Assembly: GCA_964016885.1 (NCBI GenBank)
Contig: OZ024746.1
Location: forward strand, 91,388,001-91,452,000
Length of the DNA stretch: 64,000 bases
Reading direction: 5' to 3'
Origin: Eledone cirrhosa
Taxonomy: Eukaryota
Translations under genes and position numbers: made by a program
Notes under the pieces: model-generated
What the model was told of the DNA's origin: nothing
Database searches by the model: none
The model's input: only the letters and a program-made list of their open reading frames with translations
Part shown: positions 1,629-49,877 of the stretch, piece after piece
Position numbering within the stretch: the first letter of the stretch is position 1
Layout: each line of letters begins with the position of its first letter

Positions 1629-1640
1629 TGTATATATGTA

Positions 1641-1671
<31 letters not shown>

Positions 1672-1701
1672 TAGTTTTGCGAGGTTTTTTATATGAAATC
1701 G

Positions 1702-2140
1702 TGTTATACTTGGGGAGGGTCATATTTGTGTAATATTGCCAGAATTAATAACAGAACACACTCACTGTTTGGTTGGTTTTTGGGGTTTTTTTTTCGCTTC
1801 TCGCTGTCTTTTATATCGGTAATCTAAATTACTCGGTCCTCAATGTTGCCATTGACTGACCGACGGTCAAAAATAATACAGATACAATATAGACACAAAC
1901 ACATATATATAGTTTATCATATGGTTGATAAACTATATATATGTGTTTGTGTCTATATTGTATCTGTATTATTTTTGACCGTCGGTCAGTCAATGGCAAC
2001 ATTGAGGACCGAGTAAATTAGATTACCGATATAAAAGACAGCGAGAAGCGAAAAAAAAACCCCAAAAAACCAACCAAACAGTGAGTGTGTTCTGTTATTA
2101 ATTCTGGCAATATTACACAAATATGACCCTCCCCAAGTAT

Positions 2141-2144
<4 letters not shown>
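1702..2144. mobile_element. ~218-bp-arm palindrome of the ribozyme-element (family H1) 3' segment
   Basis: Arms 1702-1919 and 1926-2144 are near-perfect reverse complements (about 1 substitution, 1 indel) around spacer TATGGT. Homologous to 19887-20060 and 45956-46145. Flanked by (TA)n. Confidence 0.85.
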
Positions 2145-2179
<35 letters not shown>

Positions 2180-2266
2180 GTATGTATGTAAACAGAAATA
2201 ACAACACAATCGGTATAGTATATGGAAGGTATATATTAGGTTAACGCTTGATATAGCAGGAAGAGG

Positions 2267-2304
2267 GTCTTAACGTTTCGGATGCTAGTCTTTCATCAAA
2301 AGAA
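2267..2304 (-). ncRNA. decayed minimal hammerhead ribozyme (family H3)
   Basis: RC: TCTT-TTGATGA-A-AGAC TAGC ATCC-GAAA-CG-TT-AAGAC, with a C3->U change in the core. Homologous to 5342-5378 including downstream sequence. Confidence 0.55.
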
Positions 2305-2396: not shown

Positions 2397-4892
2397 TCAT
2401 CATCATCATCGTTTAACGTCCATCTTCCATGCTTGCATGGGTTTGGACGGGAGTTTTCCCACTTGAGGCAAGATTTGTTGTCTTGCTCGCATAGAACTGT
2501 CTGGCGGGTTTTCTACGGCTGGATGCCCTTCCTAACACCAACCACGTTTACAGTGTGGACTGGGAGGTTTTTACCGTGTTACCTACACGGCCACATTACA
2601 GCGTGGACAGTGTGTTTTTTGTCGTGACACCTACACGACCTCATTTGTTTCGGACTGGATGATGTGGTACCAACATAACTTTACATTGAAAGGGGTGGTG
2701 TGGATGGGGTGGGGGTAGTGGGACGGAGGTGTATTTTGTTAGAGGTGCCTACTGACTGTAGTAGGTTTCACTTTGTACTTAAGTAAGGCGGGTCTTCTGT
2801 ATTACTGTGTAGCGCCAAAGATCTCGGTCCAGTGACATTGTCTTGGAGAGGTGTAAGTATGTGAGGTCGGAATTTATCAAGTCGTCCCAGGTTTTTCTGG
2901 GTCTACCTACTCCGTGGCTACCGTCTATTTTTATTGCCCTGCACTTTTTTATACAGCTGTCGTCTTTCATGCGCATCACGTGACCATACCAATGTAGTCT
3001 TCTCTTGAGTAAACAACATCTGATCACTCTTATTTCTAATTTTTCCCTTAGTTCGTTTATGCTTTGCCGTTCACGTGTATTACTATTACACATCCAGCGG
3101 AGCATGCAAGCTTCGTTCCTCTCCAGTCTGTATATCCTCTGCACACAATGCCCAGGTCTCACTGCCATGTAACATTGCTGTTCGTATGCAGGCATCACAC
3201 AGCCTACCTTACATTTTTAGAGAGAACCCTTTAGCGGCTAATAGTGGTATAAGCTCTCTGAACTTTTTCCATCCAGTTCTGACTCTAGCTACTGTACTTT
3301 CAGAGCACCCTCCACCACTGCTGATTTTGTCACCCAAGTAACAGAAGGTGTCCATTATTTCTATAGAACTATCTGTGCAATGGAATGAGCTAGTATTCTG
3401 TGGGCACTTGCTGCTACTTATTGCACCAGAGCACCGGCCACATATAAAATCTATATTCTTAGTTAGCTTACCTGTGATCCCACTACATCTTTTATGCACC
3501 AATACTTTGCATTTGGGACATAAAATGGAGTTTCTGCCTACTCCTTTCCTACACACTGAGCATGGCCATTTCCCAGATGGGACCGGTGCCCTATTTTCCT
3601 TCCTACAAACTAGAACTTTAGTCTTAGACAGGTTAATTTTAAGGCCTTTTGATTCTAGGCCATACTTCCATTTTTGGAATTTCTTCTCTAGTTCAGCCAT
3701 TGATTCAGCTATGAGCGTTAGATCATCTGCGTATAGGAATTCCCATGGGCAGCCGGTCTTGAACTCCTCTGTTATAGCCTGAAGGGCAATGATAAATAGT
3801 AGGGGGATAAGAATGGAGCCTTGATGGATGCCAACTTTTACGCTAAACTCTTCACTATGTTCGTTGTTAATTCTAACCTTGCTGACTGTTTCTTTATACA
3901 TGGCTTGTATAGCTCTCACAAGCCATTCATCAACACCTAGTTATCTAAGAGCCCACCAGATAATGGAACGGGGGACTCTGTCAAAGGCTTTCTCCAAGTC
4001 GACAAAAGCTAAGTATAGGAGTTTACTTTTAGCTAGGTACTTCTCCTGTAGTTGTCGTACAATGAAAAGAGCATCTGTGGTACTTTTACCTGACACAAAC
4101 CCGAACTGCATTTCATGTAGATCAATTTGCTCTCTGATTATTACTTTTTCTGTGACCTTCATGACCTGGTCGATTAATTTAATGCCTCTATAGTTACCCC
4201 TATCTAGGGCATCTCTTTTACCCTTGTAGCAGTTAATGATGATGCTGCTACGCTAGTCCTTCAGAACAACCCCATTCTGTATGACTTGGTTTACTATCCG
4301 GGTGACCATAGTGTGTCCCACCGTTCCAGAAGCTTTCAGCATTTCAGCAACTATTTCCGAAGGCCCAGCCGCCTTACCCGTCTTCATATCTTTAATTGCC
4401 TTACTTATTATACTACCTTTGACTAACACAGCTGGTCCCTCTATTGGATCGATGTGGGGGAGACTGTCTTTCTCCCATTTATTCTCCTCATTTAGTAGCC
4501 TTTCGTAGTGACACTTCCAAGCTACCTTCTTATCAGCATCAGTGATGGCAAGTACACCATCATCGTTAAGGACACACTTCTCCCCAACAATATCACGGTT
4601 TTCCTTGACACATTGCTTAGCAATCCTGAACACCTCACATTTTTGGTCCTCGCGTTGTAGAACATGCTTGAACTTTCTTTCCTCTGCTTCCCTTCTTGCG
4701 AAGTACATTTGTCTCCTAGATTCCCTCCTGGCCACTTGATAGTCTTCTCTACTTCCCCCATCCTACCATACTTTCCAAGCCTGCTTTCTGGCCTTAATTG
4801 ACTCCTCCACCTTACTGTTCCACCACCACGTTACTCTCCTCCTGCCTATAGGCCTGCTCCAGCCACAGTCTTCATCTGACGCCATCAGCAGG
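2397..4892 (-). mobile_element. 5'-truncated RTE-clade LINE
   Basis: Broken ORF with TWWWN, QFGF..GKSTTDA, FVDLEKAFDRVPR, VGIHQGS, LYADD, YLG and RLHWYGHVMRM/GRPRKTW motifs. ~380-bp 3' UTR ending in (GAT)n at ~2397-2410. Confidence 0.95.
2779..4890 (-). pseudogene. RTE reverse transcriptase ORF, disrupted (stops/frameshifts)
   Basis: ORF-track pieces 4253-4735, 3941-4162, 3209-3919 and 2779-3198 are colinear parts of one RT polyprotein. The endonuclease domain is missing. Confidence 0.92.
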
Positions 4893-9771: not shown

Positions 9772-10131
9772 ATATTGTTATGCTTTGGGAGGGTCATGTT
9801 GCCAATAAGAAACACACGCACCAGTTGCTTTCACTTCAATTTATTATAAATTAAATTTATAAACACACACAAAAACAAGATGGCGTAGAACAGAACAAAG
9901 GAGAGGCACAAAAACAAAGAAAATAATCCCCAGTCACTGAAGAGGTCACAGAATGTGTGACGAAAGAACTTTGACAATATATGAACAATCGTCTGGTTGT
10001 GGAACCAACCAGCCAACCGGAAATTTATAAATTCCTAAATTTATAAATTTAATTTATAATAAATTGAAGTGAAAGCAACTGGTGCGTGTGTTTCTTATTG
10101 GCAACATGACCCTCCCAAAGCATAACAATAT
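9772..10131. mobile_element. hammerhead-bearing element family H1b with 92-bp perfect inverted arms
   Basis: Arms 9772-9863 / 10040-10131. The interior is homologous to 49645-49885. Confidence 0.8.
9933..9975 (+). ncRNA. type-I minimal hammerhead ribozyme
   Basis: GTCA-CTGAAGA-G-GTCACA GAATG TGTGAC-GAAA-G AA C-TT-TGAC. Stems I, II and III pair; CUU triplet. Confidence 0.75.
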
Positions 10132-19886: not shown

Positions 19887-19891
<5 letters not shown>

Positions 19892-20160
19892 ATACTTGAG
19901 GAGGGTCATATTGTTATAATATTGCCAGAAATAATAACAGAACACACTCACTGTTTGGTTGGTTTTCGCTTCTGTATCTTTTATATCTCCATAGTTAATT
20001 TATTTGGCAATCAATGTTTATCTGTGGTTAAAAATACAGATATAAATATACATATAGAGTGTAAGAAAGTTCTTTTGTCACATATTTGCAACATCATCAG
20101 TGGTACTATTATGTTTCCTCCCATTGTATTGTAAAGTCTATGCCATTTTTATTTAATTAT
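19887..20160 (-). mobile_element. ribozyme-element family H1 copy with inactivated hammerhead (20062-20105)
   Basis: RC: TACCA-CTGATGA-TGTTGCAAATATGTGAC-AAAA-GAAC-TT (GAAA->AAAA). Colinear with 45870-46145. Lies between (TA)n tracts. Confidence 0.7.
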
Positions 20161-32365: not shown

Positions 32366-32917
32366 TTTGGTTGGTGCATAATTATTGCGGCAAATTGGTA
32401 AAAATTCGGACATGTTCGGCTTTGTTGTTATCGGAGAGTTCGTGGGGGACCCACCCAGCCAATTTCTATACTTTTCCGAGTTTTTTGAGACGACGAACGA
32501 TGGTCGAATGGTCCATATTGAAGTCTTCACCCAACATTCTCGTTGTCAAGCTTCCGTCCACTTCCACGGCTGCCAAAAGTGCCTGGTCGTTGAAATTTGA
32601 TAGTCGACCTCTTCCTTCTTCATCTGCGAGGTTTGTATCGCCCGATTTAATCTTCCTGAACCATCTTTCAACTTGGCTTTTGCTGATTGTTCCTTCACCA
32701 AAAAGTTCATTGAGATCGCGAAATGACTGAGGCTGCATTCCAACCTTTTTCGAATTGGTAGAGCATAATATGACGAATGTGGATATGATTTTCGATACGC
32801 ATTCTGAAAAGAGAAAAACCCGACCGTCATTTAAAGATGTTTTTGTTAAATATTGTTATTGTTTTTGTTAAATAAAATTTGTTGAAAAAAAGCCGCAATA
32901 ATTATACACCAACTCAA
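32366..32917 (-). mobile_element. internally deleted mariner (Hsmar1/cecropia-like TIRs)
   Basis: 26-bp TIRs TT(T/G)(G/A)GTTGGTG(C/T)ATAATTATTGCGGC with TA flanks. Encodes the HTH region (…RWFRKIKSGDTNLADEEGRGR…HSTIVRRLKKLGKV) and WVPHEL; the DD34D domain is absent. Confidence 0.9.
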
Positions 32918-45599: not shown

Positions 45600-46141
45600 A
45601 CCAGAGAAGCAACTGAAATAGAACTAAGAAAACCAAAGTTGAACAGAAAGAACAAATGGAATAACAACAACAGCCATACCCAAACAGACAATACTGACCT
45701 AAGCGAAATATAAATATATGCGCAAGTACAAAAACAACAAACCCACATAAACACACACTAGTGAACAAAGATAGAATACAAAAACACATACAGTCAAACC
45801 CGAACACACACACAAACAGGAAACACACACGCAAATGCAGGCACGGAGACAGAGACAAGAATAAATAAAATAAAAATGGCGTAGGCATTACAATACAACG
45901 GGAGGAAACATAATAGTACCACTGATGATGTCCCAGATGTGTGACGAAAGAACTTTGATAGACTATATATATATTTATATCTGTATTTTTAACCGTTGGT
46001 CAATCAATGATCAACATTCATTGCCAGATAAATTAACTATGGAGATATAAAAGATACGGAAGTGAAAACCAACCCAAACCAAAGAGTGAGTGTGTTCTGT
46101 TATTATTTCTGGCAATATTATAACAATATGACCCTCCCCAA

Positions 46142-46145
<4 letters not shown>
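45600..46145 (+). mobile_element. ribozyme-element family H1, longest copy
   Basis: A/C-rich 5' region, AAAATGGCGTAG motif, hammerhead, then ~190-nt 3' segment ending ATGACCCTCCCCAAGTAT-(AT)n. Confidence 0.7.
45917..45960 (+). ncRNA. minimal hammerhead ribozyme (family H1)
   Basis: TACCA-CTGATGA-T-GTC..GAC-GAAA-G AA C-TT-TGATA. Predicted cut after 45955. Confidence 0.65.
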
Positions 46146-46177
<32 letters not shown>

Positions 46178-49620: not shown

Positions 49621-49718
49621 ATATATATATATTTCGTTTCATATACAACACACACACAGAAACAAAATGGCGTAGGACAGAAGAAAGGAAAGGCACAGAA
49701 ACAAAGAAAGGAATCCCC

Positions 49719-49763
49719 AGTCACTGAAGAGGTCACAGGGTGTGTGACGAAAGGACTATGACT
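49719..49763 (+). ncRNA. type-I minimal hammerhead ribozyme (family H1b)
   Basis: AGTCA-CTGAAGA-G-GTCACA GGGTG TGTGAC-GAAA-G GA C-TA-TGACT with CUA triplet, inside element ~49645-49885 flanked by (TA)n. Confidence 0.78.
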
Positions 49764-49877
49764 ATATATAAACAACCAGAAATTTATAAGTTTATAAATT
49801 TATAAATATATAATAAATTGAAGTGAAAGCAACTGGTGCGTGTGTTTCTTATTGGCAACATGACCCTCCCAAAGTAT

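Follow-up and report, generated by a model that had tools for sequence, protein, structure and literature searches.

Head-to-head insertions of a Penelope-like retrotransposon in Eledone cirrhosa and an excess of 5' junctions at a predicted hammerhead cut

The palindrome described here consists of two copies of a Penelope-like retrotransposon inserted head to head. Both the element and its layout are ordinary, and the new point is the excess of 5' ends, across copies of the family, at the cut predicted for the element's hammerhead ribozyme. The palindrome lies in a window of 64,000 nucleotides (contig OZ024746.1 of assembly GCA_964016885.1, positions 91,388,001 to 91,452,000), the whole stretch of DNA that was analysed; genome-wide counts come from searches of the 3.0-Gb assembly. 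The starts of the arms, taken with the excess of other copies at the cut, are likely to be the genomic trace of a ribozyme that sometimes cuts in living cells. The favoured reading, to which we give a probability of about 0.55, is that a minority of insertions was copied from self-cleaved RNA and that cleavage is a minor source of templates.

The initial annotation had described arms of about 218 bp sharing the same start. This is borne out by alignment: the arms (Table 1) measure 218 and 219 nt, are 99.1% identical and share their first 15 nt; they differ only by a substitution (1828/2017) and by an additional base in a run of A. As had been proposed, each arm copies the sequence that follows the predicted cut, and the two copies stand head to head. 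By their diagnostic bases the arms belong to the subfamily in which the last base of the NUH triplet is A, so that the two spacer bases beside the left arm agree with the uncut element as well. The right arm therefore starts exactly at the predicted cut, as had been claimed for both, and the left arm starts either at the cut or 2 nt before it. A tail of about 32 nt (1701 to 1670) is present on the left arm only, which makes the palindrome asymmetric at its outer ends. A target-site duplication is not distinguishable within the (TA)n flanks. The start of the open reading frame (ORF) in the arms was placed from two tandem loci, L124 and L120.

Table 1. Features of the palindrome and of related copies in the window
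Feature	Position	Strand	Description
(TA)n target, left side	1631..1669	.	sequence
Optional tail of left arm (ORF continuation)	1670..1701	-	17-nt deletion between short direct repeats
Left arm	1702..1919	-	inverted equivalent of right arm; starts at the predicted cut or up to 2 nt before it
Junction spacer	1920..1925	.	6 nt; 2 nt possibly element-derived, other 4 unlike the upstream sequence of either arm
Right arm	1926..2144	+	from predicted hammerhead cut through 197-nt leader to first 22 nt of ORF; without tail
ORF start codon and first codons in right arm	2123..2144	+	mirror copy 1723 to 1702, minus strand
(TA)n target, right side	2145..2177	.	sequence
Third, diverged family copy	19888..20158	-	ribozyme region kept, core damaged
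Diverged 3' family fragment keeping ribozyme	45601..46146	+	ends in (TA)n
Minimal type I hammerhead in diverged copy	45913..45966	+	inspection and cross-family covariation; predicted cut after 45955

The palindrome is real in the assembly and is young, though not unusually so. Its arms differ by 1 substitution, the 67 close pairs average 3.1 and many of them have 0. Since both arms arise together, their identity alone says little about the recent event first deduced from it.

The parent is an autonomous, endonuclease-containing (EN+) Penelope-like element (PLE), of Neptune/Nematis type by the linker criterion given in the consulted part of PMC8557442. In longer linked copies the ORF encodes YVDD, a CX4CX2C linker and a GIY-YIG-type C-terminus, all read directly as motifs. 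The linker precedes the nuclease and agrees with the CX2-5CxxC pattern of the Neptune clade, a pattern common to Neptune and Nematis. The profile matches are weaker: Pfam RVT_1 is matched at E 0.012-0.014, below the cut-off, by retrieved copies that have broken frames, a 35%-identical homologue matches Pfam GIY-YIG at E 0.003, and a PDB search gave weak reverse transcriptase (RT) matches only (E 0.02-0.14). The N-terminal part of the ORF holds a long asparagine-rich insert (L120:3417-5408, minus strand; L124:3264-5060, plus strand), and such inserts have likewise been reported in rotifer Penelopes (PMC3846280, in part). Locus L124 holds a partial tandem whose unit measures 4119 bp, and here as expected of PLEs the partial tandem forms a pseudo-LTR that takes in the start of the ORF. 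Because the 3' repeat of this tandem stops 22 nt into the ORF, each arm of the palindrome amounts to the 197-nt leader followed by the first codons, and the optional tail is what extends the left arm. The insertion target is a (TA)n repeat. The family is abundant, one 21-nt anchor having 4278 exact matches genome-wide and a young subfamily, D, at least 2846 copies more. In a sample of 110 adjacent head-to-head pairs, enriched for short structures, exactly one arm bears the tail in 95 of the 97 that could be classified.

The compared parts of earlier descriptions of Neptune/Nematis-type EN+ PLEs (PMC8557442, PMC3846280) show the same features throughout: an RT with a C-terminal GIY-YIG-type nuclease and a CX2-5CxxC linker, partial tandems, an inverted 5'-truncated copy, a tail of 30-40 bp on one end, a pseudo-LTR over the first codons, a (TA)n target and an asparagine-rich insert in the ORF. 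No structural difference from them was found. As inverted 5'-truncated copies, one-sided tails and junction palindromes have thus been described for PLEs, the palindrome as such is known anatomy, namely the inverted pseudo-LTR layout; a link between 5' junctions and the ribozyme cut is absent from the descriptions compared.

A hammerhead cutting after 45955 had been proposed for the copy at 45.9 kb, in which the core starts at 45922 and stems I-III can be placed. Its similarity to the arms is only about 77%; copies far nearer to them (92-94%) have the same minimal type I hammerhead just before the arm start, and its predicted cut precedes the same base. In stems I and II there is covariation between the arm family and its sister family, H2, and the cut predicted for each precedes the same two bases, which confirms the register first proposed. 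Among the loci examined, the motif was found in the pseudo-LTR in 168 instances with covarying stems. Rfam returned no hammerhead among its 129 matches in the window. Self-cleavage at the NUH site is a prediction on which the genomic junctions bear indirectly. The metazoan PLE minimal type I hammerheads of PMC4209133 are alike in their extra base before stem II, 5-bp stem II, tiny quasi-palindromic stem III and pseudo-LTR location. The compared part of that work reports low activity in vitro and no evidence in vivo, and it is with respect to the latter that the genomic excess of ends at the cut is a new hint. Further hammerheads occur in the window: two of the sister family H2 with a 5-bp stem I (about 9925-9975 and 49712-49770, both plus strand), and a degenerate minimal one of a third family just to the right of the palindrome (about 2262-2303, minus strand), relatives of which have an intact first core box in a contig of a public sequencing run.

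From the palindrome it had first been suggested that the 5' end of retrotransposed RNA is generally set by self-cleavage. The copies contradict this: among the matches listed (100 of 4278), 98 keep upstream ribozyme sequence, with at least about 29 nt upstream of the cut retained, and 94 keep all 41 nt shown. Breaks at the 5' end are scattered along the whole element, including its upstream part (matches listed, 100 of 233). A route through cut RNA would be a minor one, accounting for roughly 1-2% of copies.

The excess appears when head-to-head structures are considered. Within 25 nt of the cut there are 14 of them genome-wide and none with the reversed control pattern, which excludes chance; the spacer is of at most 2 nt in 6 of the 14, and both arms reach the 3' end of the element in 7. 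An anchor placed 30 nt downstream of the cut retrieved 106 head-to-head junctions whose gaps did not exceed 130 nt. Those with a gap of at most 80 numbered 73, from which 71 rows were mapped and 65 kept, the 6 others being 2 duplicates and 4 badly mapped rows (3 of these, by eye, with an arm at 1-2 nt). In 21 of these 65 near-symmetric junctions an arm lies 0-2 nt from the cut, against 1-12% under a null run at 24 settings of microhomology and symmetry bias (p <=2e-5). Both arms fall within -2..+3 in 14 of the 65, and few end just upstream of the cut. Even in three junctions with filler DNA (L132, L163 and L040) both arms end exactly at the mapped site.

The same tendency is seen across all junction types in subfamily G, where 27 of 39 lie at 0-2 nt (null 32-48%) and 13 of those 39 coincide exactly with the cut (null 8-9%), as counted from the matches listed (100 of 236) after exclusion of rows with indels or point changes as non-junctions. 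Stem III of this subfamily pairs poorly (AGAACU-type duplex, +1.4 kcal/mol), so that G is not the predicted best cutter. The subfamilies of the window type, counted over all junction types and with loci from the targeted palindrome searches excluded, give 8 of 16 at 0-2 (p 0.06-0.09). In at least one subfamily, and among near-symmetric junctions, there is a real excess of 5' ends at the predicted cut; across subfamilies it is uneven. A peak at the NUH site in a map of all 5' ends had been proposed as a check; it emerges in these two sets, is weak in the window-type subfamilies, and H2 behaves as chance. A separate locus, L335 (G000:C1:400,323,300-400,327,600), holds two near-identical short copies 2.7 kb apart and tail to tail, each starting exactly at the cut and with (TA)n on both sides.

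A single event could account for the palindrome, and the scheme that we propose builds on what is read directly from the assembly (family identity, layout, target, one-sided tail, recurrence and the junction enrichment at the predicted cut). The element would insert once into a (TA)n repeat, its endonuclease nicking both strands, and reverse transcription would start at two sites about 35-45 nt apart, at the end of the tail on one strand and at the base of the tail on the other. Two cDNAs primed on opposite DNA strands would then be joined head to head. In the normal case each cDNA would stop at a scattered point of uncut RNA, giving inverted arms of unequal length. Were the template instead the short 3' fragment left by cleavage in the downstream pseudo-LTR, the two cDNAs would end at one and the same base. 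End-joining, with 0-13 bases of filler, would then leave a near-perfect palindrome, which would account for the enrichment being strongest among near-symmetric junctions. A biochemical counterpart exists in Poseidon PAc of Anolis, for which the compared part of PMC11167929 reports that the PLE protein nicks and extends both strands, from two RT start sites bounding the tail and at an AT-rich target, and that the ribozyme is protein-assisted. Its cut is inside the ORF, whereas the cut discussed here lies 197 nt upstream of the ORF.

The alternative that survives best, although we consider it unlikely, is twin insertion on uncut RNA, the hot spot being produced by RT stalling at the folded ribozyme or by end-joining favoured by sequence 8-9 nt upstream of an internal (TA)5 run. 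According to the same part of PMC11167929, cleavage is dispensable in vitro and no RNA reads end at the cut. Nine arms that cluster beside the peak, 2 nt downstream of the cut, also suit this alternative, as does the sister family H2, whose ribozyme is normal, whose downstream context is different and whose peak is slight. At least 250 H2 head-to-head junctions exist genome-wide. The scripted set has 7 of 24 at 0-2, the same as chance; by eye there are about 35 at 0-2 against about 43 at 3-9 (matches listed, 100 of 231), and 1 structure has both arms at the cut among the matches listed (50 of 250 head-to-head structures). A stall, on the other hand, would be expected at the 3' foot of the helix and not at the scissile bond, and the G peak (13/39 exact) holds with different upstream bases and in the absence of TA microhomology.

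Subfamily D can be argued either way. It has a 9-nt duplication at the ribozyme cut in all 100 matches listed, which yields two candidate cut sites and a long self-complementary stem. Once 11 of 63 rows were left out as non-junctions, 23 of 52 junctions fall at the second site and 10 of 52, equal to chance, at the first (two-sided p 0.035); the null for the second site is 18-20% at mild microhomology weights, and at strong weights there is no excess. D also supplies 11 of the 21 near-symmetric matches, the remainder (10 of 48, hand count) being about twice the null and borderline. The first site has canonical spacing and a good stem I. The D peak lies 9 nt from this canonical cut and tracks the downstream sequence, as a context effect would; against this, the long stem III of D (duplex -9.0 kcal/mol) could, in a model whose active register needs a bulge, have shifted the cut to the second site. 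D thus represents either a moved cut site or a sign that sequence context, and not catalysis, makes the peak. Its use as a clean decoy control was dropped, since stem I pairing allows either site as the cut.

It could also be supposed that one cDNA primed itself by folding back, or that a hairpin was repaired, the first arm thus serving as template for the second; the centre would still mark the stop of the first cDNA. Self-priming has been proposed for junction palindromes (PMC3846280, in part). The two arms have an A/C homopolymer expansion in common (1778-1802, minus strand; 2043-2067, plus strand) of which the assembly contains 2 matches, the arms themselves, and the search of the assembly gave no source copy with this private variant. 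Close pairs also have rare substitutions in common somewhat more often than distant ones (0.54 against 0.17-0.19 per pair). The private variant may reflect copying between the arms, yet its presence in both is accounted for equally well if the source locus lay on the other haplotype or if gene conversion followed later. Contrary to a fixed order of copying, either arm can be the longer one: the tailed arm in 37 pairs, the untailed in 27 (p 0.26 for 37 vs 27), with 31 equal. The one-tail pattern with either arm longer fits two-strand priming better than fixed-order fold-back, which we regard as improbable, and provides numbers in favour of two-strand priming as the source of inverted repeats.

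Coincidence is very improbable. The short region does contain 106 head-to-head junctions, others among them cluster at self-complementary motifs and the window-type subfamilies alone are not significant, so that the palindrome could be one match among about a hundred scattered junctions; the proportions of 21/65 against an expected 12% at most, and of 27/39 in G, speak against it. A fold-back read or assembly artefact is the least credible explanation, for although contigs from public runs (4 runs, 2 samples, 1 study) cover the left flank and none bridges the spacer, in samples that may lack the allele, the flanks differ, the tail is on one arm only, the arms differ at 2 places, the one-tail anatomy recurs in 95/97 pairs and an artefact would not be expected to be centred on the cut at locus after locus. 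A microRNA reading of the palindrome was rejected, Rfam giving sub-threshold hairpin matches only.

Genomic 5' junctions at a cut have served before as evidence of cleavage in vivo, for the HDV-like ribozyme of R2 (PMC3774820) and the twister of Perere-3 (PMC8501958). In the parts of these reports compared, the ribozyme sits on the downstream side of its cut and determines where elements of full length begin; the hammerhead considered here, in contrast, is destroyed by its own cut, and the copies that bear its mark are a small minority. Non-LTR retrozymes (bioRxiv 10.64898/2026.07.22.740005, in part) likewise have a type I hammerhead and are akin to PLE pseudo-LTRs, but they are head-to-tail arrays that keep the ribozyme. 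The palindrome is head-to-head, its arms are without ribozyme and its parent is coding, and its identification as a non-LTR retrozyme was therefore ruled out. The literature consulted, in part, gave no report of PLE junctions at the hammerhead cut, and an earlier mention elsewhere is possible.

Whether PLE hammerheads cut in vivo, and to what purpose, is the open question on which these observations bear; cutting is poor in vitro, the single reconstituted system can do without it, and the single search reported turned up no RNA ends. In the junction excess one would have evidence at base resolution, obtainable from any good assembly, that cleavage occurs and that its product is reverse-transcribed, and the excess would favour a damping role, through short dead copies, over an obligatory step. 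We propose, tentatively and at somewhat less than even odds, that germ-line self-cleavage of hammerheads is recorded in 5' junctions, cut RNAs giving short insertions devoid of ribozyme and perfect palindromes to an extent that differs by subfamily. Junction maps could then rank the activity of ribozyme variants in vivo, and the 9-nt duplication would have moved the cut in D.

The remainder of the window is a TA-rich repeat landscape, and the repeat-finder output is dominated by minisatellites, among them a long 23-bp array from 6014 with at least 120 registers listed. A broken LINE RT with a cysteine-rich insert (2779-4762, minus strand) is presumably RTE-like, and a fragment at 32466-32855 (minus strand) resembles what we take to be the N-terminus of a mariner-type transposase.
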